From: a virus
Taxonomy: Duplodnaviria > Caudoviricetes
Virus record (IMG/VR): IMGVR_UViG_3300033489_000055
Span: 1-24,102 of that record
Direction: 5' to 3' (one strand)
DNA: 24,102 nt
Of the stretch, positions 1 to 18,932 are shown in pieces. Every line of letters starts with the position of its first letter. Positions within the stretch are counted from its first letter, which is position 1. Both the position numbers and the translations under genes were made by a program. The notes below the pieces were generated by a model, which saw only the letters and a program-made list of their open reading frames with translations, was not told the DNA's origin and did not search any database.

Positions 1-843
1 GTCCGCCTGGTCGATGCCCATCGTGCCGACGCGCGTCGAAACCGTCAGCGTGATCTCGCCCGCCGTCGCGCCCAAGTGCTGCGAGGCCGCGTGCGCCGTC
101 GAATCCGGCGTCAGTGTGGTGGCGTCAAGCGTTACCCTCTTGGTGGCGTTGATGGGCGCCGCGTCGATCAGCCACAGGTCGCCGGTCCCCTGGTAAATGT
201 CGTTTACCTGAACGCTCTTCGTGGACGGTGTCCCGCCGGCCGCGTCGGTCAGTGTCTCGAAGATGATGCCGATCTGCTGGCCGGCTGTCCGGTCCAGGTC
301 GGCCAGACCCAAAAACTTGACCGCCGCCGTCGCCATCTTGGATCGCCCGAACGCGATCTGGAAGCCGCCCGCGGCCACGGCCTTGTACAGGCAGCTCACC
401 AAATACTTCGCCCCGCTGACGCGCCGCTGCGAAATCGCCGCCACGCATACCTCCGGCAGCGCGATCGTGCCGCCGAAAACCACCTGCGTGAAGCCCGTGC
501 CGCTCGATGGCGCGCCCACGCCCAGCGCGTGCGCCAGCTTCACCGGATCCATCTGCGCCAGGTCCGCGGCGATCGACGATTCGACGCCGGTGACGACGCT
601 GTCAAACGGCCCGTCGTACTGGTCCAGGTTGATCAGCGCATGCGACGGCTTGACGGCCGTCGTGAGCGCGCTGGCGATGATCCCCAGGTGTACGCTCGCG
701 CCGTGCGTCACAGTGTCCGGCGTTCCGTCGCTGGCCAGGTCCACGCGAGGCGCTTCGTCTGTCGGCGCCGTCGCCAGAATCCAGAGATCACCAGGCCCCT
801 GATGAATCTCACTCGCTACGATGTCTTTGGCTGTTCCTGCCAT
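1..843 (-). CDS. Major tail tube protein with internal domain duplication (3' truncated by window edge)
   Basis: Not in ORF track. ATG at 843 after GGAGGAGG; frame open to base 1: MAGTAKDIVASEIHQGPGDLWILATAP... Follows the tail terminator gene; the N-terminal motif recurs about 203 aa later. Confidence 0.8.
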   Translation of the reverse strand, partial: MAGTAKDIVASEIHQGPGDLWILATAPTDEAPRVDLASDGTPDTVTHGASVHLGIIASALTTAVKPSHALINLDQYDGPFDSVVTGVESSIAADLAQMDPVKLAHALGVGAPSSGTGFTQVVFGGTIALPEVCVAAISQRRVSGAKYLVSCLYKAVAAGGFQIAFGRSKMATAAVKFLGLADLDRTAGQQIGIIFETLTDAAGGTPSTKSVQVNDIYQGTGDLWLIDAAPINATKRVTLDATTLTPDSTAHAASQHLGATAGEITLTVSTRVGTMGIDQAD

Positions 844-977
844 GATTCCTCCTCCGCGCTGATCAGCGCATAGCTCACTTCATCCGCGACTGCGTCGTCC
901 AGTTCGACGACGTCGCCAAACTCATACACTTGCCCCAGGATCATCACCGGCAGCGTCACGCGGTACTTGCGCTTCAC
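816..977 (-). CDS. Small 53-aa tail-associated protein (position of Mu gp38)
   Basis: GTG overlaps upstream stop (GTGA). MKRKYRVTLPVMILGQVYEFGDVVELDDAVADEV... has the Y-x-x-GDVVEL motif common in small genes before tail genes. Confidence 0.7.
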   Translation of the reverse strand: MKRKYRVTLPVMILGQVYEFGDVVELDDAVADEVSYALISAEEESWQEQPKTS

Positions 978-1429
978 GGCTCGGCCACCTCCACAGTGAG
1001 ATCGATCTCGGGGAACCGAGCCATCCCCCCGCCTTTCGCGAACAGCGGCCCGTAATCGTGGCCGACCACGTACACCCGGTTGACCTGGCCGCCCATCACC
1101 GTGATCTCGCGCGCAGCATCCGCCGCCGCGATCGCCTGGTGGACCGCGCGCACGTAGACCATCGCCGCATCGGTCACATCGCCCGGCTCGGTGCCGCTCA
1201 CCGCCAGCGTGATCTGTAGCTCGTGCGCCATGTTCTCGACGCCTTGCGCGTCCGGATCGAACAGCGTCCGCCGCGGCATCACGTACAGCGCCGGCATGTT
1301 GGCGACGATGCCGCTGAACTGGCGCCCGTACTCCCGGATCGGCTCCCGGTCCACCGGCAGCGCCGCCGGCACGCGCTTCTCCAGCGCGGTCAGCACCGCA
1401 TCGATCACCGGCTTGATGTACTCAGCCAC
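974..1429 (-). CDS. Putative tail terminator/completion protein (Mu gp37-like position)
   Basis: 151 aa; PALYV motif, C-terminal beta strand (EIDLTVEVAE); lies between gpG and tail tube. Confidence 0.7.
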   Translation of the reverse strand: MAEYIKPVIDAVLTALEKRVPAALPVDREPIREYGRQFSGIVANMPALYVMPRRTLFDPDAQGVENMAHELQITLAVSGTEPGDVTDAAMVYVRAVHQAIAAADAAREITVMGGQVNRVYVVGHDYGPLFAKGGGMARFPEIDLTVEVAEP

Positions 1430-1595
1430 GCTCCACCTTTGCGACCATCTCCCGGTACGCGGCCCGCGCCACGTCGATCGCGTGCGCCCGCGCCCACATC
1501 CGGGCCACCAGGTAGCGCAGGATGTCCGGTGACATCCACGTTGTCCAGCCCGCCGCCAGCACAGCCACTATCGCCAACAGAATCGCGTCCAGCAC
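1422..1595 (-). CDS. Small single-TM membrane protein, 57 aa
   Basis: Likely start is GTG at 1595, not 1922. MLDAILLAIVAVLAAGWTTW... then a basic helix; fills the gap between two real genes. Confidence 0.65.
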   Translation of the reverse strand: MLDAILLAIVAVLAAGWTTWMSPDILRYLVARMWARAHAIDVARAAYREMVAKVERG

Positions 1596-1609
1596 CTCTG
1601 TCCCTTGCC

Positions 1610-2905
1610 TCAGTACACGTACCCGATCGGCCCCACGTTCGCCGTGAACGTCGTCGGCACCGTCAGGCTCGGCAACGTGCCGAATGTGCCCGTTGCCGAC
1701 TTCGTCAGCACATCCACGTACGTGCTCGCCGCGATCGTCCGCAGCGTGTCCGTGGTCCCGTTCGATTGGAGCGCGACCCAGTACCGCGCCGGCCCCACCG
1801 CCGCATACGTGCTCGTGAACGCAATCTCCTGGAACGCGTTCGCTCCGCTCGACGTGGTGCCCGCCAGCGCGCTGTTCGCCACCACCGCCCCGCCATCGGA
1901 GTCGTAAAGCGCCACGATCCATTCGTCCGTGCCCACCGTCGCCCCGTTCAGCACGCCCACGCCCGTCAGTGTCACGTTGCGCGGGATGAACACCTCGGCC
2001 CAGTATGTCGTTCCCGCCACCAGTGTCGTGTTCGTGCCCAGCGACCCATAGGCCACCGACCCGATCGGTATGACCGCGTACTTACTCCTCCCCGTGTATG
2101 CCTCGCCCGACGCCGGCGTGATCACTCCGCCCGCCGACACGCTCGCCAAAACCGTCCCGGCCGAGTTTTTCCAGTCGTGCAGATTTGCCGTCTGGCTTGC
2201 CGCGCCCTGCACCGTCGCCGCCACGTTCCCCGCCGCGCTCGCCCGCGCCGTCGCTTCGTAGCTCGTCGCCGCGCCGGCCGAGGTGACAAAGAACTTCCCG
2301 CCGCCGATGTCGAACGTGCTGGTACAAGTGTTCCCGAGCAAGCACAGCCGGAAGTTCGAGTTATCCCAGAACAGCTTGGTGTTGTTCTGTGAGTACACGC
2401 CCGCCGCGATCGCGAACGGAATCGACCCTGCGGTGAATGCCGTCGCAGTTCCCGTCCCGCCCTCCGTCACCCGCACCGGGAATCCCTGCCCCGGCAGGTA
2501 CCCGCGGTAGTTCACACTAATGTTTGGCGATGTGCCACCGGAAAGCGCGCTCAGGTTCACGGTGAGAAACATGTATGTGCCGCTCAGCGCGTACGTCCCA
2601 GCCGAGGTGCACGTCTGCGAGGATTCCGTCGACCACGTCACCGCGTCCGGACTCGACTCGACGAGCAGCGTGCAGCTCGCCGGCCCGCCCTGCACCGTCC
2701 ACTCGATAACGTGATTGGTGATCCCCAGGTTCCGCACGTTGACGAAGATCACGCTCCGCCCCGTCGCCGTCTGCTTGTCGAGAAGCTGCGAATACATCGC
2801 ACTCGTCCCGCTCACCGCGCTCGTCTGCCCGTATGCCCACGCAATCAACAGCAGCACCGCCGCCGCGCCGACCGCCATCCCTATTGCCTTCTTACCTTTT
2901 TCCAT
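1610..2905 (-). CDS. Signal-peptide-bearing fibre-like protein
   Basis: MEKGKK, hydrophobic core, AYG|Q cleavage site; fibre-shaft-like motifs (VTEGGTG, LFWDNSNFRL); beta-rich C-terminal domain. Confidence 0.8.
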   Translation of the reverse strand: MEKGKKAIGMAVGAAAVLLLIAWAYGQTSAVSGTSAMYSQLLDKQTATGRSVIFVNVRNLGITNHVIEWTVQGGPASCTLLVESSPDAVTWSTESSQTCTSAGTYALSGTYMFLTVNLSALSGGTSPNISVNYRGYLPGQGFPVRVTEGGTGTATAFTAGSIPFAIAAGVYSQNNTKLFWDNSNFRLCLLGNTCTSTFDIGGGKFFVTSAGAATSYEATARASAAGNVAATVQGAASQTANLHDWKNSAGTVLASVSAGGVITPASGEAYTGRSKYAVIPIGSVAYGSLGTNTTLVAGTTYWAEVFIPRNVTLTGVGVLNGATVGTDEWIVALYDSDGGAVVANSALAGTTSSGANAFQEIAFTSTYAAVGPARYWVALQSNGTTDTLRTIAASTYVDVLTKSATGTFGTLPSLTVPTTFTANVGPIGYVY

Positions 2906-2915
2906 TTGCCTTTCC

Positions 2916-3485
2916 TCAAACTCGCCTCGCCCATGACGGGACGCTCTTGCCCCACCCCGCCCGCGCCATGATGCCGCTGACCTCTAACGGCCTCAGCCCT
3001 CGCCTGAACCCGCTCTGTGTCGCTATCTGCACCAGGTACATATGCAGGTGCCGCATGGTCCCACGCTTGAACTGCTCGGTCAGCATGATCTCCGGCCGCC
3101 GCGGCAGCACCTTGCGCGGCGCCGGCGATTGGTGATAGATCGCATACGACACCTTCGATCCCAGCGTCAGGGTCTTGCGCTCCCGCACCCGCACCGCATT
3201 CGGATCCGTGCCCGACGTAAGTGAAGCCACCAGGTCCCCCGTCCGTTGCAGGATCGGCTTGCCCGGATAGCGCACTTCCTTCCAGCCGGCGTACTCGGCC
3301 GACAGTTCCGGCCATTTCTCCCCGCCCTCCGCGCCTTCGCTTTTGAACTGGAATTTCTCCTCCGCATAGAAATCGTCTTCGATCACCGGCCAGATGGGCT
3401 TGTAGTCTGTGAGCCCGTCCGAGAACCGGGCGATCCCCCGGTCCATCTGCACCTCGCCGGCAATGTCGAGCCTGAATCGGAACAT
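2916..3485 (-). CDS. Virion morphogenesis protein (Mu gpG-like)
   Basis: FKSEG...WPELS...ILQRTGDLVASL...GSKVSYAIYHQ...LPRRP pattern typical of the gpG/tail-completion family. Confidence 0.88.
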   Translation of the reverse strand: MFRFRLDIAGEVQMDRGIARFSDGLTDYKPIWPVIEDDFYAEEKFQFKSEGAEGGEKWPELSAEYAGWKEVRYPGKPILQRTGDLVASLTSGTDPNAVRVRERKTLTLGSKVSYAIYHQSPAPRKVLPRRPEIMLTEQFKRGTMRHLHMYLVQIATQSGFRRGLRPLEVSGIMARAGWGKSVPSWARRV

Positions 3486-3710
3486 CTACTTACTAGCCAG
3501 CCCCGAAACCCACTGCTCGAACTTGCCCATTGCCTCGGCCGCGAGTTTATGCAGCGGCGCCGTGATCTCCAGGTGCCGCTTCCACAGCTCCGCCTTCGTC
3601 GCCGCGTCCTGCCCCTCGATGATCTTCTCCGTCAGCGAGCAGCCCGCGATGATCGCGTCCTCGTATGGCCCGTGCACCTTGATTACTTGCTGTTGCTCCG
3701 CCACCGCCAT
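3486..3710 (-). CDS. Hypothetical protein, 74 aa
   Basis: ATG after GGGGAGG; stop abuts the gpG start; helical composition. Confidence 0.7.
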   Translation of the reverse strand: MAVAEQQQVIKVHGPYEDAIIAGCSLTEKIIEGQDAATKAELWKRHLEITAPLHKLAAEAMGKFEQWVSGLASK

Positions 3711-3714
3711 CCTC

Positions 3715-3756
3715 CCCTTTGCCTTTTGCCCTTTGCCCTTTGCCTTTTGACTTTTG
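3715..3756. repeat. Heptamer tandem repeat, 6 units of (C/A)C(C/T)TTTG
   Basis: CCCTTTG CCTTTTG CCCTTTG CCCTTTG CCTTTTG ACTTTTG, intergenic. Confidence 0.95.
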
Positions 3757-3765
3757 GTTTCGGGG

Positions 3766-4236
3766 CTACCGCCAGTACAGGATCGAGACGATGTACCCGG
3801 CCGCGATTGGTTGGCCGGTTACAAACGTGACCGTCTGCCCGTCGATCTGGTAGTCGTGCGTCTCCGCCATTAACAAGCCGTTCGCGTACACCTTCACCGG
3901 CGTGCCCACCGCGGGCGCCGCCGTAAGCTGAAATGTCTGCGTCGGCACTGTCACCAGGAACGTGTGCCGTGCCTCCGTGCGAGCCGAGGGAACGACCGCT
4001 CGAATCACCGGCGGAGTTGCCGCCGTGTCTATTTGTATGCTCGAATCCGGCTGCACCAAGAGCCAGCCGCCCGGCGTCAGCACGCGGATCGCCGTGAAGC
4101 TCGTCACTGGAGCCTGCACCATCGCGTCCGGAACCTGCGTCGGCGGCCCCTGCGCCAGCGCCGCCAGCCCGATCCCGAGCGTCAGCATGATCGCCACCAG
4201 CAGCCCCGAGAACTTCCAATCTTTGATCCCTTGCAC
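3766..4236 (-). CDS. Signal-peptide-bearing small beta-sandwich protein
   Basis: MQGIKDWK, hydrophobic core, ALA|Q site; C-terminal VKVYANG...DYQIDGQTVTF...P..G..V pattern resembling fibre-adaptor domains. Confidence 0.8.
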   Translation of the reverse strand: MQGIKDWKFSGLLVAIMLTLGIGLAALAQGPPTQVPDAMVQAPVTSFTAIRVLTPGGWLLVQPDSSIQIDTAATPPVIRAVVPSARTEARHTFLVTVPTQTFQLTAAPAVGTPVKVYANGLLMAETHDYQIDGQTVTFVTGQPIAAGYIVSILYWR

Positions 4237-4262
4237 CTTCGTGCCTCCGTGTCTTTGTGGTT
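4237..4262. repeat. Short 8-9-bp-unit repeat element (CTTCGTG/CTTTGCG type)
   Basis: CTTCGTGC CTCCGTGT CTTTGTGGTT fills the whole intergenic gap; related to elements at 9505 and 18902. Confidence 0.65.
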
Positions 4263-5016
4263 AGAAGATTTGCGTCTTTGAGAACGCCCGCTCGGCATCC
4301 CCGTCATCCGTCTCGATGTCACCGCCCGCAAACTGCGTTCCGGTTTCCACCGTCGCCGCGGCCGGCTTGAACAGCTTGTCGTACCCGCCGTCTCCGAGCG
4401 TCTTCAATTCCCGCCCGAAGTCCGCCTGCAAATTCTTGGCCAGGCCCCACTCGCCCTGGCTGAACTGCCCCGCGATCGCCGACGCCAGCCGCGCGGCCGC
4501 GCCGTACCGGTTGATCAGCTCCAGCACGCCCGCCGGCGTAGGCATCGCCGTCGCCGCGTCCGGTTGCTGCCACTGCGTTGAATCCAGCGACAGCCCCCGC
4601 CGCAACATCGCGCCCGCGATCGACTGCGCGATCGACCGCATCCAGCCCTCGATGGCCGAGTCCTGCACCTGGCCGCCGCGCCGGAAGCCCGGCACCTCGC
4701 CGCACACCGCCTCGATGTTGGTCCAGCTCTGTAGTGTTGAAGCCGGGTACGGGAAATTGACCGTGAACGATACGATCGCCGACCGCGATCCGTCCTCGTT
4801 CTGGACAAACACGCTGACGACAGCCGACCCGCCCGCCGGCCCGACCAGGTCGGCCGGGATCGCCGCCTCCAGCTCGGCGGCCGAGACGAACGTCGTCTCC
4901 GCCAGCGCCGGGCAACCGACCTGGGCCCCGGCGTCGAAGCCGGAGCCCAGGCAAGTGATCACCGTCCCCGGAGGGCCGAGGGCCGGTGAAACCGAAGTGA
5001 GCGTAGGAGCCGCCAT
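4261..5016 (-). CDS. IPT/TIG Ig-like domain fused to putative head-tail adaptor (Mu gp36-like position)
   Basis: N-terminus PTLTSVSP..GPPGTVIT..GSGF...TTFVSAAEL...V.VQN.DG..S...FTV is IPT/TIG-like; helical C-terminal half; directly follows the capsid gene. Confidence 0.75.
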   Translation of the reverse strand: MAAPTLTSVSPALGPPGTVITCLGSGFDAGAQVGCPALAETTFVSAAELEAAIPADLVGPAGGSAVVSVFVQNEDGSRSAIVSFTVNFPYPASTLQSWTNIEAVCGEVPGFRRGGQVQDSAIEGWMRSIAQSIAGAMLRRGLSLDSTQWQQPDAATAMPTPAGVLELINRYGAAARLASAIAGQFSQGEWGLAKNLQADFGRELKTLGDGGYDKLFKPAAATVETGTQFAGGDIETDDGDAERAFSKTQIF

Positions 5017-5022
5017 CTTGCC

Positions 5023-5952
5023 CTACTGGAGGCAGTTGCTGAACAGCGCCCCGGCGTACTGGTCGATGACCTTCTGGTCGTAATACTTGTGGACCTCGAC
5101 CACGTCGGCCAGGTTCGGCTCCCAGTAGTAGCGGTTCACGAACTGCGCCTGGCCAGCCCCGAACGCCTGGTTCCACTGGAACGTGTAACCGAGCGCCACG
5201 GTCTTCCGGCCCGGGGACGGAGGCCGGTACGCCAGCAGCGCGTACTCGCCCCACACCCAGCCGTTGGAGTTCGGCTGGCCTTCGTTCGCGGTGTCGTACA
5301 CCGCGCTGCCGATCAGGATCTCCTGCAGCCCCAGGTACGCGGCGAGTTGCCCCGTGGTCACTGCCGCGTCCGCCAGGTTTCCGGCGCCGTTGATCAGGCT
5401 CCGCACGTTCGCGTTGAGCTTCAGTGCGGACCAGACCGGATCGGAAAGCGCCAGTACATTCGGCTTCTGGCCGACCGCCAGCCCGACCGTCAGCATCTTC
5501 GCGTCGATGATCGCCAGCGGGTCTACGTCATCGCTGTCCCAGGGCGTGCTGGTCTGTGCGGTCGGTGTCATGCCCGCCGCCACCGCCGCCACCAGGTTGG
5601 CTTCTTGATTGAGCAGGATCTGCCCCGTCAGAAACTCCGTGGTGTCGCTGAGCATGTCGAGCTGCGGCAGCCCGTTGCTCTGGTTCTCGCGCGGCACGTA
5701 GTCCTTCAGAGCGTGCCCGTCGCAATAGAACGTCCCGTCCGAGTAGGTCCAGCGCGATGGCCGCGCCTCGGCGCCCGGCGACCGCCGGTCGTCGCGGACC
5801 CGGTACACTTCCTTGCCGTGGATCAGGTACTTGTCGCTCTGCTTGGCAACTGGCACCGGCAGGAACACCCGCTCGGCGATGAACGTCCCGTTTCTGTAGC
5901 CCACCGAAACATCGGTGAGCCGTTGATCGATGTGAACTGTGCCTTCCGGCAT
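5023..5952 (-). CDS. Major capsid protein, 309 aa
   Basis: ATG at 5952 after AGGAG (ORF track start 6027 is too long). IDQRLTDVSVGYRN..FIAERVF..VPV, GQKPNVLAL, GYTF and GALFSN motifs; head-gene context. Confidence 0.9.
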   Translation of the reverse strand: MPEGTVHIDQRLTDVSVGYRNGTFIAERVFLPVPVAKQSDKYLIHGKEVYRVRDDRRSPGAEARPSRWTYSDGTFYCDGHALKDYVPRENQSNGLPQLDMLSDTTEFLTGQILLNQEANLVAAVAAGMTPTAQTSTPWDSDDVDPLAIIDAKMLTVGLAVGQKPNVLALSDPVWSALKLNANVRSLINGAGNLADAAVTTGQLAAYLGLQEILIGSAVYDTANEGQPNSNGWVWGEYALLAYRPPSPGRKTVALGYTFQWNQAFGAGQAQFVNRYYWEPNLADVVEVHKYYDQKVIDQYAGALFSNCLQ

Positions 5953-6089
5953 CTCTTCTCCTAAGCCCTCCACCTTGCACCGGCGATATCCGGAGCCCGT
6001 TCCCCGGAAGCCTGACGCGATCGCCACCAGTGCCGCCGGCGCGCGCCCGTCAGGAACACGCGCCGGCCATCAACGGGCCCGCTCGACTG
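5953..6089 (-). promoter_or_regulatory. Structured intergenic leader upstream of the capsid gene
   Basis: Stem 6035-6045/6057-6067; nested stems 5977-6033; 7-nt complementarity 6011-6017/6048-6054. Confidence 0.5.
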
Positions 6090-6503
6090 CTAGCTCGCGG
6101 CCGTCTTGGCCACGAACGGCTGAATCTGCAGCTCGAAGATGTCCCCGTCCGCCGCCGCCGCCGTCCGCGCCACGCCGATCACGTAGTTGATCTTGGCCGA
6201 GCCCGGCGCCAGCACCACGTCCGCCTGCGCCGAATTCATCTTTCCGGCGCTATCCGCGATGCGCACATAGTCGCCCACCGCGATCGTCCCCGTCGCTGCC
6301 ACCGCAAAGCTCCGGCCGCTCTCTTTCACCGGAACGCTCCGGTACTGGGTGGCCTGCGCCTCCTGCGTGATGCCGATGAACTTGCCTTCGTTCTCGGCGC
6401 TCGGCTTCTTGACGGCTCCCGCCGCCGTGCCTTGAACAACCGCCCGATAGATCAGTACCCCGGCGGCGTCCTCGATTTTGTAAGACCTGATTTCTCCTGT
6501 CAT
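6090..6503 (-). CDS. Capsid decoration/cement protein (DUF2190-like)
   Basis: 137 aa; FIGIT, IAVGDYV..ADSAGK, IGVARTAAAADGDIFEL motifs; between protease and capsid genes. Confidence 0.8.
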   Translation of the reverse strand: MTGEIRSYKIEDAAGVLIYRAVVQGTAAGAVKKPSAENEGKFIGITQEAQATQYRSVPVKESGRSFAVAATGTIAVGDYVRIADSAGKMNSAQADVVLAPGSAKINYVIGVARTAAAADGDIFELQIQPFVAKTAAS

Positions 6504-6522
6504 GACTGGTTCGTTCGCCTCC

Positions 6523-7080
6523 TCAACTGCGCATCAGCTCGGCCCGGCGCTGCGCCAGGTCGGGATGCTCGCTCAGCACCGCCTTGAACGCCGTGCCGTA
6601 GCTCTGGTCCTTGTTCGCCGCGAGCTTGGCCTGAACCTGCTCGTCGATCTGCCGATCGATCTTCTTCAGGTCTCCGCCCTCGCCGCCGCTGCCCGCGATG
6701 CCGTGCTCGCTCAGATCGATCTGCGGCTTCATCGTCTTGAGCAAATCGCGGAAGCCGTCGATGTCCGACAGCGCCAGCTTCTCGTAGTGCGGCCGCTGCG
6801 CCGGCGTGATCTTGCCGCCCTGCACCGCCGCATCCAGCTCGAGCTGCGCCTGCTGCGCGTGGAAGATCTCCCCCGCGATCAGCGTCCCCTGTTCGTGCGG
6901 CAACGAGGCGAAATCCAGCCTCCCCTCCTTGTCGCGTTTCACCTCTGAAAGACGGAACACTTTCGGCTCGGGCTTGAGCGCTTCCAAGCCCTCGACCGGC
7001 AGCGTGACTTCCTTTCCGTCCTCCAACACCGCGCGCACCGTGCCGGCGGCGCGATCCGCCATGATCAACTTTGTGATCAC
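6523..7080 (-). CDS. Nested scaffolding protein (Mu gpZ-like), in-frame internal start
   Basis: GAGGAGG, 5 nt, then in-frame GTG at 7080, right after the protease domain; contains AVQGGKITPAQR. Confidence 0.7.
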   Translation of the reverse strand: MITKLIMADRAAGTVRAVLEDGKEVTLPVEGLEALKPEPKVFRLSEVKRDKEGRLDFASLPHEQGTLIAGEIFHAQQAQLELDAAVQGGKITPAQRPHYEKLALSDIDGFRDLLKTMKPQIDLSEHGIAGSGGEGGDLKKIDRQIDEQVQAKLAANKDQSYGTAFKAVLSEHPDLAQRRAELMRS

Positions 7081-7614
7081 CGTAACCTCCTCATCGCCGC
7101 CGTCGCGGTCGATCTCTCTCCACCCGGCCTCACTCAGTGCGATAGCCGGCAGATCCTGCAACACCGGAATGTTCGTCAGCGCCGCGCTCGTCAGCGTCCA
7201 GCCCTGCTGTTCGCCCGTCTTGATGTCGCGCGTCGCCGGATTCATCACCGGCGAAAAGTACTTGTACTCGCGGGCCTTGATGTAGGCAGCCGCCTTCTCC
7301 GTCCACTCGGCCATGGCCCACAGAATGCCGTGCTCGTCCGGGGCGTCTTCGATCCCCTTGATCCACCCCGCCGCCGGCACCGCCGCTCCGCTGCCCGCCG
7401 CGAATTCGATGCCGTGCTCGTAATCGATCGGCACCTCGCCGTTTGGCCGTTTGCAAAAGTTGGCGACCACCTGGCTCAGCATCTCGCGCGTGATCCGGAT
7501 TTTCTGTTTCCCCTTCCACCAGGTCCCGATCTTCGCGATCGCGATCCGCACCAACTGCCCAGGCTCCCCCGGCTCCGCCAGGAGAACTACAAACCGCGGC
7601 ATGCTGCTCGTCAT
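6523..7614 (-). CDS. Mu-like prohead protease (gpI) with C-terminal scaffold region
   Basis: PIDYEH, PAAGWI, EWTEKAAAYIKAREYKYFSP and SAALTN.P motifs of Mu-type protease I. Confidence 0.93.
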   Translation of the reverse strand: MTSSMPRFVVLLAEPGEPGQLVRIAIAKIGTWWKGKQKIRITREMLSQVVANFCKRPNGEVPIDYEHGIEFAAGSGAAVPAAGWIKGIEDAPDEHGILWAMAEWTEKAAAYIKAREYKYFSPVMNPATRDIKTGEQQGWTLTSAALTNIPVLQDLPAIALSEAGWREIDRDGGDEEVTVITKLIMADRAAGTVRAVLEDGKEVTLPVEGLEALKPEPKVFRLSEVKRDKEGRLDFASLPHEQGTLIAGEIFHAQQAQLELDAAVQGGKITPAQRPHYEKLALSDIDGFRDLLKTMKPQIDLSEHGIAGSGGEGGDLKKIDRQIDEQVQAKLAANKDQSYGTAFKAVLSEHPDLAQRRAELMRS

Positions 7615-7628
7615 CCTCTCTCCCTTCG

Positions 7629-7668
7629 GAGAGCCGGAGCCCCCTCCCCCGAGTCGGCCCCGGCCCCC
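7629..7668 (-). promoter_or_regulatory. Intergenic hairpin upstream of the protease gene
   Basis: Minus strand GGGGGCCGGGGCC...GGCTCCGGCTCTC forms a 13-bp stem with G-U pairs; no U-tract follows. Confidence 0.5.
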
Positions 7669-7678
7669 GTGCGCTGGT

Positions 7679-8686
7679 CTACACCAGCAGTCCGACGTTG
7701 GACGTGTCGCCGGCGGGCTTCACCGCGCCCACGATGGCGATCTTGTTGCGGTCGTTGACGTCCCACTTGATCAGCGTCGCGGGAGCGTCCGAGATGGTGG
7801 CGCAAGCGGCGTCCACCAGGAAATACCCTTGCGTCAGAGCCGGCAGCCGGAACACGCCCGTGGCCGCCACGGCGTAGTTGGCGCTCTGGTACAAGAACTT
7901 GCAGCCCTGGAAGTAGTTGAACGCGTCAACGCCCGTCGCGTCCGCCACCTCCACCAGAACATGGTTGGTCGCGTGCGACACCTGGCTCACGATCCGGCAG
8001 TTCTCGAACAGGTTTTCCTTCGCCGACGAATCGAACAGGATCTGCGAGTTCAATTGCGCCCCGCGCGCCAGTGTGAATGTCCCGATCACGCAGTGGTAGA
8101 ACTCGTTCTCTTCCGCCCCGTCCAGCTTCAGTGCGTACGCCCCCGCGATGTCGTTCGTCGCGGCCACGTACCCGGCGAAATGGCACCGCTCGAACCGGTT
8201 CCGGCTGCCCGTCACCTTCACTCCGCCGGTCGGGTTCACGCTTGCCACTTCGACCACCGTCAGCAGGTTCGCGAAGTAGCAGCCGTTCGCCGAAACCGTC
8301 ATCAAGTTCGATGCCCCGGCATACGCGTCGGTAAAAGCGATCCGCGAGCGCGGTGAAATGCTCACTCCGCTGTTGACCCCGATCAGGTGTACCAGGTCCT
8401 TGTTCCAGTCCAGCGTCGCGGCCTGCTTATCGGTGGTGTTGGCTGCCGCGTTCGCCTCGCTGTATAGCAACACGATATCGTTCTGGTTCGCCGTGCACTT
8501 GGAAAGTGCGTAGGGCAACGTCTTGAACGCCTCGCTCGGCTTCATGCCGCTGTTGCCGTCATTGCCGCTGGACGGCTTGACGTGGCAGATCTTGCCCTGG
8601 GTGAATGCTAGCCAGGGCGGAAGCTGCGGCAGCATCGGGATCGCCCCGATCCTCGGCAGTTGTGGTGTGAATCGTGTTTGTGCCAC
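7679..8686 (-). CDS. Right-handed beta-helix (pectate-lyase-like fold) protein, about 335 aa
   Basis: Likely GTG start at 8686 (MAQTRFTPQ...). HVKPSSGNDGNSG...AFKTL..AL cap motif; repeated N-x-F-x-x-C rungs (NRFERC, NEFYHC, NLFENC, NYFQGC). Confidence 0.8.
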   Translation of the reverse strand: MAQTRFTPQLPRIGAIPMLPQLPPWLAFTQGKICHVKPSSGNDGNSGMKPSEAFKTLPYALSKCTANQNDIVLLYSEANAAANTTDKQAATLDWNKDLVHLIGVNSGVSISPRSRIAFTDAYAGASNLMTVSANGCYFANLLTVVEVASVNPTGGVKVTGSRNRFERCHFAGYVAATNDIAGAYALKLDGAEENEFYHCVIGTFTLARGAQLNSQILFDSSAKENLFENCRIVSQVSHATNHVLVEVADATGVDAFNYFQGCKFLYQSANYAVAATGVFRLPALTQGYFLVDAACATISDAPATLIKWDVNDRNKIAIVGAVKPAGDTSNVGLLV

Positions 8687-8691
8687 TTTTC

Positions 8692-10806
8692 TTACCTGTT
8701 CCTTTCCTCGTCCTTGAAAATGTACACATGCACGCAACGGCACTTGTCGCCGCCGTCGCAATCGGGGTTCGGGACGCCCGGAATTTCGTCTAGTGTCGTG
8801 CCCTCGGCCCCGTCCGCGTGCGAGCAGTTCTCGCACGTATTCCAGTCCAACAGCGCGCTGTACTGCACCGCGCCGATCTCGTCGGAGTACTCCTGGTAGC
8901 CCGCCTGGCGTCCGTCCGCGAACGCTTCGTTCGCGCCCTTCGCCGCCGCGCCGTCGATCCACTTGTCCGATTGCTCGTCAAGCTCCTGTTCGACCTTGCG
9001 GATGATCTCGCCCTTGCTGAGATCGCCCGGCCGCCGCATCCAGTCCAGCGCCACGTTCGCGGCCCGGCTGGTGAGGGTAGTGATGAACTCCCCCACCACG
9101 CCGTCCGCGTAGACGCCTAGCGGATCGCGCTTGAGTTTCTTCTTCAACACGCTGGCCGCGCGGATCGCCTCGGCGTCTCTCGGCGCCGCGCCGGCCTGCT
9201 GCCGCTCTCGCTCCTGACCCACTTGTTGGGAGCCAAACTCGCCGACCCCCTGCAGGATTTCTTCAACCTCCGCGATTAACCGCTCGTCCGGAGCGACGCT
9301 CACGCGGTGCATCGACCGCACCGGCGCGTTCACCAGCTTGTTGACGATCTCGGCCTGGATGGCGCTCCGGGCCCGGCGCAGTGCGGCCGCGATCTCGTCG
9401 CGGCCTTTGTCCAGCGCGCTCACGATATCCGCCAGCGCCAGGTGCTTCTCGGCCGGCTTCAGCTCGCGCCGGAACTTCAGCCCGCCAGCTTCGCTCATCT
9501 CGGCCTTTGCGTCTTCGCGCCTTTGCGTGAGATCCGGCGCCGCCGGCCTAGGCCGCGCCGTCGCCTTGTCTTTGCCCGGCGCGCCCAGCTTGCTCCGCAG
9601 CCACTCCTCCAACTCCTCGTCGGATTCGATGGCGCCGGCCGTCGCCAGCTTCTGGAGCGCGTCCACCAGGCTCTCGAACCGCACCGAAAGAATCTGCTGA
9701 GGGACCAGCGTCGGGTATCGCTCGATGCCGGCGAAATTGAAATCCACCAGGCGCGCGATCGTGGTCCAGTTCATGACGCGGGCGATCTTGTTCGCCGTCG
9801 CTTGCAGCGCCAGGTAGAAAAAGTCGCTCATCGTTTGCCCGAGCGCGCGGTTGCCGCTGTCCGACTGCCCCAACACCATGAACTGCGCCAGGCCGGCCAT
9901 CGAGATCTGCACGTTATGGTGCGCGATCGACTCCTTCGCGTCGCGCGTCGTGCCCGTGACGCCCGCCAACCCAAACTCCCAGCCCGGAGGCAACAGCAGC
10001 GCGGCCTTCTCGTGCGTGCTGAGCTTCTGGAGCCACTCCAGCGCCGCCTCGCGGTCTTCCTTTTTGGCGTCGGCGGCCATCTTGATCCAGGGCACGCCCA
10101 TGCCGTTGCGCTCCTGCGCGATGGCGTCGATCTTGTACAGGTTGCTCTTGATGTACCAGTGCTGGTACATCGGCCTCAGCACCGACCGCCCCGCGTAGTT
10201 GCTGCCTTCCTGCTGGAAGGTGAACAGCGCGATCTTCGATGCCGGCACCTCGACGGTCTTGTAGACGTTGCCCGCGTAGCCGTACTGCTCGATCGCCGTC
10301 AGCTCCTCGGCCTCGTCCACCAGCCAGCGATTAAACGTGCTCGGCAGCCGCGGCGCCAGCTTGCGCAGCCGCACCCGGTTGCCGTCGATGTAGTACACGT
10401 CCTCGTGCGCCGCACAGCCGAAATCAAGCATCAGCAGCGCGTTCTCGATTACGCTGTCCAGCTCTAGCTCTTCGAGCAGGCAGGCGCGCACGAACTCCGT
10501 CGCCTCGCGCTCGATGGGCGTCGCGTTATCCGGCTCGAGGATGGCCCACTCGGCCGAGCGAATCGGGAGTTTCATCCCCATCAGCGTCGCCGCCACCTGG
10601 CCGTCTCCGCGCCGCATCTTCTCGTAGAGCTGAAATGCAGCCAGCCCTTCGAGCGACGGGTTGTACTCCCCGGCGTCGCGCAGGAATCCGCCCATGATCG
10701 GCGTGCCGGTGGCCCCGAACTCGGTCAGCTCCGGCCGTTCCGAGCCGCGCGCGTTAGCAAGCGGCTTCTCCGCCAGGCCGAGCATCCGCCTCCAGTTCAC
10801 GCGCAC
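8692..10806 (-). CDS. Portal protein (Mu gp29/DUF935-like) fused to MuF-like minor head domain
   Basis: Portal motifs (GRSVLRPMY, ERNGMGVP, HHNVQIS...LAQF, GNRALG) then C-terminal YSALLDWNTCENC...NPDC.GG.KCRC; single 704-aa frame. Start may be the GTG at 10800. Confidence 0.9.
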   Translation of the reverse strand: MRVNWRRMLGLAEKPLANARGSERPELTEFGATGTPIMGGFLRDAGEYNPSLEGLAAFQLYEKMRRGDGQVAATLMGMKLPIRSAEWAILEPDNATPIEREATEFVRACLLEELELDSVIENALLMLDFGCAAHEDVYYIDGNRVRLRKLAPRLPSTFNRWLVDEAEELTAIEQYGYAGNVYKTVEVPASKIALFTFQQEGSNYAGRSVLRPMYQHWYIKSNLYKIDAIAQERNGMGVPWIKMAADAKKEDREAALEWLQKLSTHEKAALLLPPGWEFGLAGVTGTTRDAKESIAHHNVQISMAGLAQFMVLGQSDSGNRALGQTMSDFFYLALQATANKIARVMNWTTIARLVDFNFAGIERYPTLVPQQILSVRFESLVDALQKLATAGAIESDEELEEWLRSKLGAPGKDKATARPRPAAPDLTQRREDAKAEMSEAGGLKFRRELKPAEKHLALADIVSALDKGRDEIAAALRRARSAIQAEIVNKLVNAPVRSMHRVSVAPDERLIAEVEEILQGVGEFGSQQVGQERERQQAGAAPRDAEAIRAASVLKKKLKRDPLGVYADGVVGEFITTLTSRAANVALDWMRRPGDLSKGEIIRKVEQELDEQSDKWIDGAAAKGANEAFADGRQAGYQEYSDEIGAVQYSALLDWNTCENCSHADGAEGTTLDEIPGVPNPDCDGGDKCRCVHVYIFKDEERNR
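9505..9530. repeat. CTTTGCG-type short repeat element inside the portal-MuF linker
   Basis: CTTTGCGT CTTCGCGC CTTTGCGTGA; encodes TQRREDAK in frame. Confidence 0.7.
10740..10764. repeat. REP-like element (CCGAGCCGCG family) in portal N-terminus
   Basis: CCGAGCCGCGCGCGTTAGCAAGCGG; 24/25 identical to 20106-20130; encodes PLANARGS. Confidence 0.85.
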
Positions 10807-10813
10807 CTCCCCG

Positions 10814-10844
10814 GCTGACCGCTGACCGCTGATAGCTGACTGCT
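10814..10844. repeat. Heptamer tandem repeat GCTGAYH, about 4.4 units
   Basis: GCTGACC GCTGACC GCTGATA GCTGACT GCT fills the terL-portal gap. Confidence 0.92.
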
Positions 10845-10846
10845 CC

Positions 10847-12256
10847 TCAAAACACCGCCTCCATGACGTTGCCCATCACCGTCCGCCCCTCTACCTCGCA
10901 CTCGCTGGCGGGCACGTAATGCCGCGGCCCCTCCATCGCTCCGCACAGCAGCGCCGTCGCCCAAAACCAGTCCGCGTGCCCGCCCTTGTTGGTGCGCTCC
11001 GCATCGAGCCTCACCGCGCCCGTCGCGCCCACGTACCGCTTCACCGCCTGGAATTCCCGCCTCAATTGCACCGACTCCGGCAGCCAGATCGCCCGGTCCT
11101 CGCAGCGCCGCTTGAGCAGCCCGGCCATGCGTTCCTTCACCAGCACCTTCGCCGCTTTGCCCTCTTCATCTTTCAGGCCCGATTCCACCGCCGTCGCGAA
11201 GTTCACCGGCTCCACGCACTCGAACTCCGCGCTCAGCTCCTCGCCGAGCTGCATCCCGAGCCCCGTCGCGTCCATCGCGAACCGCCCGCCGCTGGCTTCG
11301 ACCACCCGCGCGACATCGGCGCAGACCGAGCGCTGCTGCGCGAAGGTCTGCTGCGAGAGCACGATAACGCCGCAGATCACCACCAGCGGGCCCACCGGAT
11401 AGCCCAGGATGATCACCGAGCCGTCCCTCTTCCGCGCCACGTCGTAGCCGGCGCACAACCCGGGCCGCGGCTGCCAGTTCCAATCGAGCGTCGCCTCGCT
11501 CGATTCGCACGCCATCACCAGGCTGAGCGGGATGTACTGGCTGCCGTCTTCCATCGGGACGTTGCAGAAATCCTGAAGCCAGATGTCCTCGTCGCCGATC
11601 GCGTCCCGCATCGCCGCCAGGTCCACCGGAGATCCCTGCGCCACGGCCATCGCCGCATCCACCCAGTAGCCGTGCCAGCCCTGCCGTGCCACCGGCTGCC
11701 TCTCCGGCGCCACGCCGTCCGCCAGGCCGAGCATCTTGAGCAGCTCGCCGAACTGGTTGTTCAGCCCCTTGACCGTGGACAACACCCGGCACTTGAAGCC
11801 CCGGCTCACGCGCGTCATGCCCGCCGCCCAGATCGCCTTCGAGTCCCGGTGCAGCGCAAACTCGTCAAGCAGCAGATCGCCCGAATAGCCGCGGGCCGTG
11901 TCCGGATTCGCCGGCAGCGCCAGCAGCCGCTTCCCGTTCGGGAAAATCGCGCGGTGCTCGACGATGCTGGTCTGCTCGAAGTAGCCGTCCTCGAATTTCA
12001 CGTCCCAGGCGCGCGTGTGCATCTTGACCTTCTCCATCAGCTCCACGCTCTGCCTGTCGCTGGCGCTCAGCAGGATGCCGAGCTGCGCGGATGCGGCCCC
12101 CGGCTTCATGCGGTCCATCGATGCCTCCAGCGACGACACGAAGGACTTGCCGGACGCCTGCGCCGCGGCCACCACGAGCTTGAAGCGGTGGTCGTCCTCG
12201 ATCCATTGCTGCTGCCATGCCAGCAGCGGGATGATCGGCTTGGGCAGGTTATGCAT
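10847..12256 (-). CDS. terL: Terminase large subunit (Mu gp28-like)
   Basis: Q-motif LAWQQQW, P-loop QASGKS, LPANPDTARGYSG, Walker B LLLDEFA; nuclease motifs GYDVARKRD, MDATGLG, HADWFWA. Confidence 0.95.
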   Translation of the reverse strand: MHNLPKPIIPLLAWQQQWIEDDHRFKLVVAAAQASGKSFVSSLEASMDRMKPGAASAQLGILLSASDRQSVELMEKVKMHTRAWDVKFEDGYFEQTSIVEHRAIFPNGKRLLALPANPDTARGYSGDLLLDEFALHRDSKAIWAAGMTRVSRGFKCRVLSTVKGLNNQFGELLKMLGLADGVAPERQPVARQGWHGYWVDAAMAVAQGSPVDLAAMRDAIGDEDIWLQDFCNVPMEDGSQYIPLSLVMACESSEATLDWNWQPRPGLCAGYDVARKRDGSVIILGYPVGPLVVICGVIVLSQQTFAQQRSVCADVARVVEASGGRFAMDATGLGMQLGEELSAEFECVEPVNFATAVESGLKDEEGKAAKVLVKERMAGLLKRRCEDRAIWLPESVQLRREFQAVKRYVGATGAVRLDAERTNKGGHADWFWATALLCGAMEGPRHYVPASECEVEGRTVMGNVMEAVF

Positions 12257-12803
12257 TTTCCTCCGGCCTGATCCCGTAGATGGCCTGGATCTCCCGCAGC
12301 CGTTCCTCGGCCGTCATCGTCTCCGCCGGCGTCTCCAGCGTCGCCTTAACCCGCGACTCCCGCTCCTCGACGAGCTTCAGCTTCCGCTCGTCCAACTCCA
12401 GCGCCCGCTGGCGGATCGCCGCCTCGCGCTCCTTCACCGAAACCTCGCGCGCCCGGAGATTCTGCGCCTGCACCTTGAGCGGGTCCGCATCCTTGAACCC
12501 ATCGGCGTTCGCCATCAGCGCATCGGTCAGCAGAGCCTCGGCCATCTCCGTCGCCGTGAAATTGTTTGCCTTCAGCTCCGCGACCAGGTCGCCGACGTAC
12601 TCTCTCGCCGCCTGGCGCCGCGACTGCTCGGCCCGCCACTCCGACGCCCGCCGCGCGATCGTGCTGTCGGACACCGCCTCGCCGATCTCCGCCAGGTCCC
12701 GCACGATCGCGGTATAGGTTTTTTTCGCCCGGAAGCCGGCCACCATCAGCCGCTGCGCTTCCGCGCTCAGCGAATCCGTCGCCTTGTGTACGAGTCGCGC
12801 CAT
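12249..12803 (-). CDS. terS: Putative terminase small subunit (Mu gp27-like)
   Basis: N-terminal HTH (TYTAIVRDL...VSDSTIAR), coiled coil, C-terminal IQAIYGI; overlaps terL start. Confidence 0.8.
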   Translation of the reverse strand: MARLVHKATDSLSAEAQRLMVAGFRAKKTYTAIVRDLAEIGEAVSDSTIARRASEWRAEQSRRQAAREYVGDLVAELKANNFTATEMAEALLTDALMANADGFKDADPLKVQAQNLRAREVSVKEREAAIRQRALELDERKLKLVEERESRVKATLETPAETMTAEERLREIQAIYGIRPEENA

Positions 12804-13144
12804 CAGAACGCTACCGAGGGGTCCTCCGCGATCAATCCATCCAGCAGTTGCAGCCCGCGCGGCTCCAGCTTGGCGAACATGATCGTCTCCGCGCTCACGT
12901 CCATCGGCCGGTCGCGACGGAAGCCCGGCAGATCCCGCGCTCGCAAGATCCGCACATAGCCCTGGTCCGCGAGATAGCGCAAGTGGAAGCTCAGCTCATC
13001 GTGCGACAGCGGCACGCCCTGCGCGTCGAGCACGCGGATCAGGCTGCGGATGCTCGTCATCTCGCGCACGTAGTCCTCTTTCAGCGTGCGCAAGATACTG
13101 CCGCGCTCCTGCGCCCAGCGCGCCTTCTCGATGTCCGCCATCAT
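12803..13144 (-). CDS. Winged-helix-like protein (Mu gp26-like position)
   Basis: R..ILRTL...L..HLRYLADQGYV...AKL..RGLQLL.G pattern; directly upstream of terS. Confidence 0.75.
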   Translation of the reverse strand: MMADIEKARWAQERGSILRTLKEDYVREMTSIRSLIRVLDAQGVPLSHDELSFHLRYLADQGYVRILRARDLPGFRRDRPMDVSAETIMFAKLEPRGLQLLDGLIAEDPSVAF

Positions 13145-13470
13145 GCCGCCGGCCTCCTTCCCGTGGCGCAGGCTTCAGCCTGCGATGTGCGCGCAGCGCC
13201 GCCTGTGATGTACGCGCTCAGTTCCTTCACCCAGTTCTTTGTCTCGTCCACCTTCGTCGCCAGCACCCGCACCGCGATCAGCAGCTCGCGCTGCTCGCCC
13301 TGCCCGTCCTTCACCGCCGACGCCAGCGCGCCCATCGCCTCGGCCTGCTGCTTCTGGACCTCAAGGAATAGGCCTGCCCACTTGTCCACCAGCTTCCAGC
13401 CCACGTAGACGATCAGCCCGCTAATCCCCAGCGTCTTGACGATCTCCACCAGCCCCGAATACTCGCTCAT
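13141..13470 (-). CDS. Single-TM plus coiled-coil membrane protein (Mu gp25-like position; possible lysis accessory)
   Basis: TM segment LGISGLIVYVGWKLV followed by heptad helix; ATGA-coupled on both sides. Confidence 0.75.
   Translation of the reverse strand: MSEYSGLVEIVKTLGISGLIVYVGWKLVDKWAGLFLEVQKQQAEAMGALASAVKDGQGEQRELLIAVRVLATKVDETKNWVKELSAYITGGAARTSQAEACATGRRPAA
13163..13184 (+). repeat. GTRG-type REP-like palindrome
   Basis: GTGG CGCAGGCT TC AGCCTGCG; encodes SQAEACAT on the minus strand. Confidence 0.9.
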
Positions 13471-14708
13471 GGCATCACCAGAATCAGCGGGAAAAACATG
13501 TTGTAGGGGCCGCTCGCACGGGGGACCCGTGCGGACGGTGCGCCCATGTTGGCCGGCATTACCAACGTCGTCGTTCCCGTGCTGACGCTGCCGTCCGAGA
13601 AATTGTAGCGGAGCGATGTGGCGCCCACCAGCCCGTAGATGCCGGTCAGCAACAGCTCGGAAGCGAAATCCCCCGAGGTTCCGAGGTATTCTAGGTATAT
13701 GGCTGCGGAGTCGGTGGTCACCCCAAGGTAGTACGTACCGGCGCCTAGAATCACATCCCCCGGAAAAGTGATGCCAAAATAGACGGCGCTCGTCTCGCCG
13801 GTGATTGTGTTGGAGTTCCCGTTGGTCATCAGCGCGCCGGAAGCGTCCCAGAGTCCGATCGCCAGGTGCTGCGCGGCTACCGAGGAAAACACTCGGGCGT
13901 ACACCTTCCGGATGGTGATCGTGGCTGGGACCTCAAATTCCCAGTAATACACGCGGTTCGCAACCGCCGTTGCGACGGCCCAGCCTACCGAGGTCGTTAG
14001 GGGCGCGCCCCACGGCCAGAAATGCCCGGCTCCAGCCGTGGACATCATGACGTGGCCATGTGAGGTCGGCGCTTTGCCCGCCAGCGCGTCTGTCAGGCCC
14101 GTCACCTCCGCGACCGCGTAGTCGCCGCTCTGTGCTGTCACCGCGCCCGTCCGCCCGAACACGCTCGATACGCCCGCCTCGACGTCGCCCCATTTCACCC
14201 CGCGCGCCTGCGTCGAGTCCCGCAGCAGCGCCTGGCCATCCGTCCCGCCCGTGAGCAATCCCCAGCTCGTGCCGAACGCGATCAGGTCGCCCTTCGCCGC
14301 GCCCACCGGCGAGAGTTGCGTGAGCGCCAGCATCGTCGCCGGCGTCTGCACCGTCGAGAGCCGCACCGCCGAGATCGTCACCGGCGTCGCGCTCGTCGGC
14401 ACCCGCCATCGCTCGTACTTCAGCAGGCCGTCGCTCAGCCGGTACTCGGCTGTGTAGTCCACCGCCGCCGGCTGCGCCGTGTCGCCCGGCTCCAGCTCGA
14501 CCGTGAACGCGCCGTTCCTCACGGCCACCGCCACCTGGCCCGCCGCAACCGTCCTCGGCCCCGGCACCGTGAACGCATCCCACTTGATCGTGATCCGGCC
14601 ACTTACTAGCTTGCCCCTCGCGTCATACAAGGTGTCGGTAATCGTGGTTAGTCCGAACGCCGCCTGCGCCGTTGCCAGCCACAGCAAGATACTAAGTCCC
14701 CTACGCAT
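13467..14708 (-). CDS. Signal-peptide-bearing tail-fibre-like protein, 413 aa
   Basis: ATG at 14708: MRRGLSILLWLATAQAAFG|LTT. N-domain resembles lambda Stf N-terminus; KGDLI and VSSVFGRTGAVTAQSGDY fibre motifs; beta-rich C-terminal domain. Confidence 0.82.
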   Translation of the reverse strand: MRRGLSILLWLATAQAAFGLTTITDTLYDARGKLVSGRITIKWDAFTVPGPRTVAAGQVAVAVRNGAFTVELEPGDTAQPAAVDYTAEYRLSDGLLKYERWRVPTSATPVTISAVRLSTVQTPATMLALTQLSPVGAAKGDLIAFGTSWGLLTGGTDGQALLRDSTQARGVKWGDVEAGVSSVFGRTGAVTAQSGDYAVAEVTGLTDALAGKAPTSHGHVMMSTAGAGHFWPWGAPLTTSVGWAVATAVANRVYYWEFEVPATITIRKVYARVFSSVAAQHLAIGLWDASGALMTNGNSNTITGETSAVYFGITFPGDVILGAGTYYLGVTTDSAAIYLEYLGTSGDFASELLLTGIYGLVGATSLRYNFSDGSVSTGTTTLVMPANMGAPSARVPRASGPYNMFFPLILVMP

Positions 14709-14928: not shown

Positions 14929-14945
14929 GCGGGCGTCCCCACACG

Positions 14946-15075: not shown

Positions 15076-15498
15076 CTAGGCCGCGTCGCGCCGGTTCATG
15101 GCGCGCACGCCCGAAAAAACGCGGTGGAAGTCGAGCCGGGTCCGGATCTGTTCCCGCCCGCCAAGCTGCCGCCGGATAAACGCGTGCTGCGTTTCCAGGC
15201 CCCATCCCCGCGCCGCGAAAGCCCGGCCGAGCGTCTCCAGGTCCTCGCCCGACACCAGCTCGATCTCGCCGCTGCGCGCGTAGCCGCGCTTCGGCAAAGA
15301 GGTAGTCCGCTTTCTTCGCAACTTATGGCCGGTCCAGTTGCGGTACAACCCTTCGAGCTGCTGCTCTGTAAGATCGCCCATCGAGTGGACTCCGAACTGT
15401 CCGCGACATACTTCGCGGAGTCCGTCGTGGTCCAGTCCGCGCTTCGCCGCTTCGGCGTGTACCGCGCGAAACAGCTTCGACCGCTGGTTCTTCATCAC
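15076..15498 (-). CDS. gemA: GemA-like regulatory protein (Mu gp16/DUF1018)
   Basis: KLFRAVHAEAAKRGLDHDGLR...GVHSMGDLTEQQL signature; end of early region. Confidence 0.82.
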   Translation of the reverse strand: MMKNQRSKLFRAVHAEAAKRGLDHDGLREVCRGQFGVHSMGDLTEQQLEGLYRNWTGHKLRRKRTTSLPKRGYARSGEIELVSGEDLETLGRAFAARGWGLETQHAFIRRQLGGREQIRTRLDFHRVFSGVRAMNRRDAA

Positions 15499-16692: not shown

Positions 16693-16702
16693 CGCTTTGC
16701 CC

Positions 16703-18920: not shown

Positions 18921-18926
18921 TGCGTT
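18902..18926. repeat. CTTTGCG-type short repeat element
   Basis: CTTTGCGC CTTCGCGG CATTGCGTT; same unit structure as 9505-9530. Confidence 0.65.
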
Positions 18927-18932
18927 TGCTCT

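Follow-up and report, generated by a model that had tools for sequence, protein, structure and literature searches.

Predicted Sec-exported, fibre-like proteins in the late operon of a Mu-like phage: candidate appendages added to virions at lysis

Could a tailed phage send part of its own virion through the secretion pathway of its host? Tailed-phage virions are held to assemble wholly in the cytoplasm, and their fibres normally lack signal peptides. The question is raised by IMG/VR record IMGVR_UViG_3300033489_000055, of which positions 1-24,102 were analysed (the window, 24,102 nucleotides) and which covers most of a Mu-like transposable phage. Three minus-strand genes of its late operon, here called A, B and C (Table 1), open with a predicted Sec signal peptide (leader), as an earlier note on this DNA had claimed; the note suggested that the products are exported and then added to virions, matured outside the cytoplasm, or used on the cell surface as receptor blockers or adhesins. 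Addition to virions, for which cultured phages offer precedents, appears the likeliest of these options, and we put the probability that A, B and C are exported appendages docking on virions at lysis at roughly 60%.

The basic n-region, hydrophobic core and cleavage motif described for each leader were all confirmed, the motifs being AYG-Q in B (between residues 26 and 27), ALA-Q in C (28 and 29) and AFG-L in A (19 and 20). Leaders were called with a simple rule of our own (a basic stretch, a hydrophobic core and small residues at -3 and -1) and not with SignalP. The rule flagged 4 of the 20 late genes of the window, namely A, B, C and 816-977, the last of which was judged false, against a background of 6 of 414 genes in control phage loci; its calls on Tunturi 4 gp16 and locus L069 were also set aside as false. 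Relative to the earlier note, its predicted cut lies two residues nearer the N-terminus in B and five nearer in A, so that the exact sites rest on alignments. By the same rule all 11 homologues of C carry a leader, as do 33 of 37 homologues of the B N-domain, the remaining four being N-terminally truncated records. Of 87 homologues of the A N-domain, 69 have one, 13 begin at the domain itself and five are unclassified. The peptides are thus the rule among homologues, a point on which the original proposal had been made to depend. Identity of the homologues to B is 17% over the leader versus 67% over the next domain, and to C 21% over the leader versus 64% over the mature part; leader character is retained while leader sequence drifts.

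The same segments could also be uncleaved membrane anchors or products of wrongly called starts, in which case A, B and C would be ordinary cytoplasmic fibres or would tether particles to the inner membrane. We regard this as very improbable. The heuristic nature of the calls and the 13 of 87 leaderless versions of A's domain leave room for it, and A's start is the least secure of the three, because its GGAGG lies further upstream than usual, there is an 8-nt overlap with the upstream neighbour, and residue 8 is taken as the start of the protein in a public gene call. B and C have good ribosome-binding sites at normal distance from the long start, and the leaders are kept across homologues despite low identity, end in small residues and accompany even cysteine counts. 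The concern that the true starts lie downstream is eased for B and C and less so for A, whose Met1 is supported by homologues opening M-R-(R/K)-L. Leaderless A homologues start at the equivalent of residue 20-21, and no membrane anchor is evident downstream of the leader in A, B or C. With conserved leaders, cysteine parity and leaderless sisters that begin at the mature chain, export of the three proteins appears well supported.

What would these proteins do once exported? In the model of A the first 100 mature residues are predicted with confidence. When this N-domain was compared with 48,161 solved chains, each of the top five matches was the N-terminal domain of a phage component from the neck, collar or tail tip, in agreement with Foldseek. 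The neck fibre of cyanophage A-1(L) ranked first (VIA Z 11.9, root-mean-square deviation (rmsd) 2.1, 95 aligned residues), followed by the tail tips of Bxb1 (10.8) and Ur-lambda (9.4), the XM1 neck (9.2) and the DEV collar (8.8); the best non-phage chain reached 7.6, and all matches with Z of at least 8 were phage fibre anchors. The domain is therefore predicted to be a phage fibre collar or anchor, and its earlier description as Stf-like is borne out by these five folds (Z 8.8-11.9). Like A, the lambda Stf and neck-collar fibres (PDB 9e7m, 8keg, 9cod, 7kjk, 9d93) place this predicted fold at the N-terminus; the part of PMC12617516 covered here describes residues 1-91 of Ur-lambda Stf as collar domains that hold the trimeric side fibre, and chain Ta, to judge from its length, is probably Stf. 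The solved chains, however, align from residue 1-2 and have no leader, whereas A has one, is short and lies outside the tail module. A may thus resemble Stf-type and neck fibres in its working, but with its 19-residue leader and its gene position it is not a canonical member.

With a leaderless query, 29 viral loci were found, and in all 29 the A-type domain opens a fibre gene, starting at its residue 1-2. The ten loci given in full share one gene order and so represent one phage group; in L176 the gene matches tail-fibre families and sits among virion genes. The C-terminal part of A resembles the tip of B (hhalign 77.6%, E 1.9e-5), and two database proteins (P0063, P0067) join an A-type anchor to a B-type tip. 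A had no Pfam match and only short repeat matches in PHROGs, its profile found no match among PDB sequences, and its best ESM Atlas feature score of 0.84, under 0.9, is a lead only.

B is predicted, from a model with a confidence (pLDDT) of 85.5, to run, after its leader, from a jelly-roll N-domain through a beta-rich fibre shaft to a swappable beta-sandwich tip resembling a carbohydrate-binding module (CBM), with two disulfides. Across 31 aligned homologues Cys78 and Cys99 are invariant and Cys188 and Cys194 nearly so, and the same front half carries three unrelated tips, as in receptor-binding proteins. The tip matches chain Z of the cyanophage A4 capsid (PDB 9jwb) with Z 16.2 (rmsd 2.9, 149 aligned residues, 16% identity), the Bxb1 tail tip with 12.7 and the lectin-like domain of Cwp84 with 11.3. 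By its length, A4 chain Z is probably the auxiliary cement protein gp25, in the consulted part of PMC12002296 a capsid-bound trimer with a carbohydrate-binding module; in B, on the other hand, the module ends a shaft behind a jelly-roll and a leader. One leaderless homologue (P0109) has a B-type tip fused to a cement domain. The N-domain of B is closest to XepA of PBSX (Z 12.4, rmsd 2.3, 97 aligned residues) and YomS of SPbeta (12.3), next to a KP1 baseplate chain (9.1) and the KHP40 and BPP-1 cement proteins (8.7), with cement and baseplate matches ranging over Z 8.3-9.1. The worry that the folds might be unrelated to fibres is answered in part, by the predicted anchor fold of A and by matches of B's tip to virion parts; B's N-domain has its best match in XepA and YomS, not in a fibre. 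B had no Pfam match, a single-query search with B confirmed none of the species genomes, and tblastn searches of 50,697 phage records gave no match to A, B or C.

The likeness to XepA opens another explanation, namely that A, B and C are exported lysis-stage factors, released before or at lysis. They would act on the envelope or bind glycans as soluble decoys, and would form no part of the mature particle. We hold this to be quite unlikely. A stands before a holin-like gene and the terminase, in what is said to be the slot of the lysis genes in Mu, and Pfam and PHROGs scans detected no endolysin either in that slot (12803-14928) or in the rest of the window; the record ends in the tail tube gene, however, so lysis genes may lie beyond it. 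In prophage L142 an A-type gene follows endolysin and holin-like genes, and a complete relative (G153, below) has a leader-bearing subtilisin-like gene in its virion operon. According to the sections of PMC6834076 covered, XepA is an exported phage late protein that is absent from particles, forms a two-disc pentamer and is encoded in a Bacillus lysis cassette, and the gene of YomS adjoins tail genes. B differs from XepA in its fibre shaft, its tip and its classical leader, at 6-10% identity, and it lies between the gpG-like and tail terminator genes, not in a lysis cassette. Its jelly-roll also matches cement and baseplate proteins, its shaft is of fibre type with swapped tips, and A has a predicted fibre-anchor fold and no catalytic domain, all of which speak against this explanation.

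Gene C supplies a link between these proteins. Of 20 A-type proteins from chromosomes or prophages, 13 contain the second of its two small domains, so that the two ends of a single host-level architecture are divided between A and C. C had no Pfam match, its profile found none among PDB sequences, and its best ESM Atlas feature score (0.87, under 0.9) is again a lead only.

Cysteine counts bear on the compartment in which the proteins fold. Among homologues that share only the tip of B, those with a leader have 38 even and 3 odd counts and those without 15 and 18 (Fisher p 1.4e-5; six homologues sharing the front half were left out, 6 cysteine-free rows were set aside, and relatedness is ignored). 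The A family shows 48 even and 19 odd counts with a leader and 1 and 11 without, and in 20 host loci the cysteine-bearing A-type proteins are even in 15 of 15 cases. These leader-linked even counts fit folding in an oxidising compartment. Disulfide formation was nevertheless rejected as the single reason for export: A and C contain no cysteine, and oxidative folding therefore cannot explain theirs.

The arrangement of the three genes is only partly that of a morphogenesis operon as originally proposed, in that B and C lie among head and tail genes while A is at the start of the late operon, before the holin-like gene and terminase. In three relatives (L010, L011, L016) B and C again stand between head and tail genes with their leaders kept; in a fourth (L012) the position of B is kept, C is missing, and another leader-bearing fibre gene follows the capsid gene. 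The complete 87.8-kb podovirus-type genome G153 encodes a 68% identical B in its virion operon and has further leader-bearing genes directly behind the capsid gene and also behind the neck genes; the A-family profile found nothing in it. Its leader-bearing subtilisin-like gene, assigned to that family by motif, is at L001:2148-3605. A leader-bearing A-type gene of prophage L133 lies in the tail module, immediately before a J-like central fibre gene. The complete front half of B was found in a single species genome, a Bryobacterales assembly with prophage L021 (60% identity), and the three nearest ESM Atlas structural clusters are mostly from Acidobacteriota; from these, and from the frequency of the A N-domain in that order described below, we infer a host among the Bryobacterales (Acidobacteria). 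In L021 the terminal gene of the tail module (L021:15934-18993) has a full signal peptide ahead of the Met at which homologues start, the only case among 19 homologues examined, and this looks like a recent gain of a leader.

A more complicated picture is seen in host chromosomes, where genes with the A N-domain occur in 108 of 151 genomes sampled from the Bryobacterales. Of 42 distinct loci, 39 have a leader, and in about 18 of the 20 regions read the A-type gene stands by itself among host genes. Stand-alone genes of this kind at first favour a surface adhesin. A, B and C would then be cargo for the host envelope, that is, exported adhesins or receptor masks borrowed from a host family of secreted fibres and serving lysogenic conversion or the exclusion of competitors. 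This explanation we consider unlikely, though it is the foremost of the alternatives. It gains from the gene content of the phage, which points to a temperate lifestyle, and from the shaft motif of B, which is common in leader-bearing surface fibres of Patescibacteria, Bacteroidota and others. The motifs VTEGGTG, LFWDNSN, VYANG..DY and VSSVFGRTGAV, offered earlier as marks of virion fibres, were all found, but given how widespread the B shaft motif is in bacterial surface fibres they are weak evidence alone, and as proof of a virion location they were rejected. The MAT fibres of Bdellovibrio, as presented in the portions of PMC10769870 covered, likewise join a signal peptide and beta-rich N-domain to a phage-like shaft and variable adhesive tip; they are chromosomally encoded and sit on the cell surface, while A, B and C belong to a phage late operon. 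When the A N-domain profile was run against MAT-like bacterial loci (L022-L094), a set that excludes the actual MATs, only a Bryobacteraceae locus matched.

Several observations speak against such cargo. A, B and C are tightly packed in the late operon, with overlaps or gaps of 10-24 nt to their neighbours, and no sigma-70-like site lies upstream of any of them; this is a weak test, since positions 800-16500 hold 3 such sites against 1.5 expected, no excess over shuffles. No RNA holder is listed for window positions 900-6100, which carries no weight either way. The N-domain of A has the predicted fold of a virion anchor, and no membrane anchor is evident after the leaders. The chromosomal A-type gene, moreover, tracks a phage-type capsid gene. 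Bryobacterales chromosomes contain a conserved terminase-portal-capsid-tail cluster, read in five genomes (G008, G007, G033, G104, G028), whose capsid gene is present in 96 of the 151 genomes at 70-89% identity and nearly always as a single copy. In these genomes 94 have both the A-type and the capsid gene, 14 only the former, 2 only the latter and 41 neither; for the A-type gene and the terminal tail-module gene the figures are 103 with both, 5 and 3 with one only and 40 with neither, counts that ignore relatedness and incomplete assemblies. The cluster looks like a domesticated element resembling a gene transfer agent (GTA), and the co-occurrence would suit a GTA-like particle with an exported fibre encoded apart from it. 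Copies of the terminal tail-module gene were also seen alone among host genes, far from clusters (L164:2197-5226, L168:15125-18391, L170:14875-18153, L172:1342-4128). A paper on acidobacterial prophages (PMC5900883) mentions no GTA cluster in the portions covered.

Precedents from cultured phages argue for a place on the virion. In the GenBank stretch read for Cellulophaga phage phi10:1, four of the eight genes annotated 'structural protein, experimental MS/MS' (gp91-94) carry textbook leaders. Tunturi 1, a podovirus isolated on Tunturiibacter according to the part of PMC11924767 covered, has heuristic leader calls on six consecutive tail genes (gp12-17), the annotated tail spike included, and the term 'signal peptide' does not occur in the main text of the Tunturi paper.

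That the genes begin with leaders, that these are conserved, where the genes sit in the operon and that tips are swapped can all be read directly in the sequences, and attachment to virions is suggested by fold, gene context and precedent. Under the exported-appendage reading, A, B and C would be made late, exported by Sec, relieved of their leaders and folded in the periplasm. When the inner membrane fails at lysis, they would dock on finished particles through their N-terminal domains, A probably on the neck or tail, B on the head or neck and C as a small partner, and would display glycan-binding tips that may recognise the surface polysaccharide of the host. Since long fibres of T4 and tailspikes of P22 reportedly attach in vitro to particles that are already complete, docking at so late a stage would be feasible.

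A number of points weigh against this reading, and it should be interpreted with caution. It is built on sequence, models and precedent. The gene of A lies away from the tail genes, and the C-terminal half of its model is poor (pLDDT <50). The protein that best matches B's N-domain is reported absent from mature particles, the shaft motif of B is common on bacterial surfaces, the absence of cysteine from A and C removes one reason for their export, and most chromosomal A-type genes stand alone; parity and co-occurrence are uncorrected for kinship. As for the precedents, the leader proteins of phi10:1 and Tunturi 1 have no detectable sequence similarity to A, B or C, and co-purification in the MS/MS data of phi10:1 does not prove stoichiometric assembly. 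Tunturi 4 has no convincing leader among 20 structural-region genes, and G153 and other relatives also possess leaderless fibre-like genes, from which it follows that export is not needed for every fibre.

The remainder of the window is that of a Mu-like phage. The hallmarks found are a DDE transposase, a MuB-like ATPase, Gam, a Mu-type portal and the I protease (matches in Pfam and PHROGs scans: phrog_310 with E 1e-80, phrog_296, PF07352, PF06074 and PF10123), alongside a large terminase, cement, major capsid and a gpG-like gene; the record terminates within the tail tube gene. Portal and gpF-like domains are fused in the single gene 8692-10800. The gene in head-tail adaptor position (4261-5016) has an N-terminal IPT/TIG domain (PF01833) and is a candidate docking site for B or C. 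Between portal-gpF and protease, a leaderless 318-aa gene with 8 cysteines (7679-8635), kept in L010 and L011, had no family match and gives the impression of a beta-helix; the 109-aa holin-like gene was also without a match in the family scans. Small genes adjoin C (3486-3710, 74 aa) and B (1422-1595, 57 aa, with a hydrophobic start), the slot of the former being taken in relatives by unrelated small amphipathic genes, and short A-rich tandem repeats of AAAGG/CAAAAGG type occupy 3715-3760, between C and the next gene.

Table 1. Positions of genes A, B and C, their predicted parts and the surrounding modules (window coordinates unless a locus is given).
Feature	Position	Strand	Basis
Gene A, 413 aa: leader, fibre-anchor domain (~20-120), short shaft with VSSVFGRTGAV repeat, C-terminal domain related to the tip of B	13467..14708	-	
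Gene A, predicted leader, residues 1-19	14652..14708	-	heuristic and homologue comparison
Gene A, N-terminal domain, predicted to fold like the collar/anchor of phage neck and tail fibres	14349..14651	-	model pLDDT >90 over 100 residues
Gene B, 431 aa: leader, jelly-roll N-domain, beta-rich shaft, exchangeable CBM-like tip; Cys78, 99, 188, 194	1610..2905	-	
Gene B, predicted leader, residues 1-26	2828..2905	-	heuristic and homologue comparison
Gene B, N-terminal jelly-roll (~32-137), like XepA C-domain/YomS and capsid cement proteins	2495..2812	-	VIA Z
Gene B, C-terminal tip (~272-431), CBM-like, DUF4082-related	1613..2092	-	VIA Z
Gene C, 156 aa: leader and two small domains, the second common to chromosomal A-type proteins	3766..4236	-	
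Gene C, predicted leader, residues 1-28	4153..4236	-	heuristic and homologue comparison
Holin-like 109-aa gene, one hydrophobic segment, overlaps the stop of A	13141..13470	-	inferred from position and shape
Head module: small terminase (by position), large terminase, portal-gpF fusion, leaderless 318-aa gene, I protease, cement, major capsid, IPT/TIG-bearing adaptor (by position)	4261..12803	-	
Neck and tail start around B: gpG-like tail completion, terminator (by position), tail tube cut by record end	1..3485	-	
Mu-type early region: GemA-like, Gam, MuB-like ATPase, DDE transposase	15076..22140	-	family scans
Bryobacterales chromosomal cluster loci	L156-L161, L166-L167, L174-L175; capsid gene L158:1108-2019		

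How far is this undescribed, as the earlier note had it? The pattern is not peculiar to this phage: other phages and host chromosomes show it as well. A search of the open literature, with most subscription papers and supplements outside its scope, found no description of Sec-exported virion appendages in tailed phages or of a GTA in Bryobacterales. The domains are known already; the leader and the route it implies appear to be new as far as the open literature goes. Phage proteins with Sec leaders reportedly include the coat proteins of filamentous phages and lambda Lom, the latter encoded among tail genes; filamentous phages assemble at the membrane, and Lom is an outer-membrane barrel, not a fibre.

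We tentatively suggest, at somewhat less than even odds, a two-compartment assembly in tailed phages of Acidobacteriota and some of Bacteroidota, as well as in the domesticated GTA-like particle of the Bryobacterales: heads and tails would be built in the cytoplasm, receptor-binding appendages would pass through Sec and fold in the periplasm, and only at lysis would they come together. Phages and the host particle would take their exported fibre modules from one common, recombining pool, and fibres made by the host could even end up on a phage. Export of appendages is testable in the cultured phages Tunturi 1 and phi10:1, and the GTA-like cluster of the Bryobacterales, with its candidate exported fibre encoded elsewhere, provides a second testable system. 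If the proposal is true, the last step of assembly would take place at or after lysis and depend on the secretion and oxidative folding machinery of the host; signal-peptide genes in phages, usually read as cargo for host conversion, would be read differently, and the prediction of host range would change for the phages of an abundant soil phylum.

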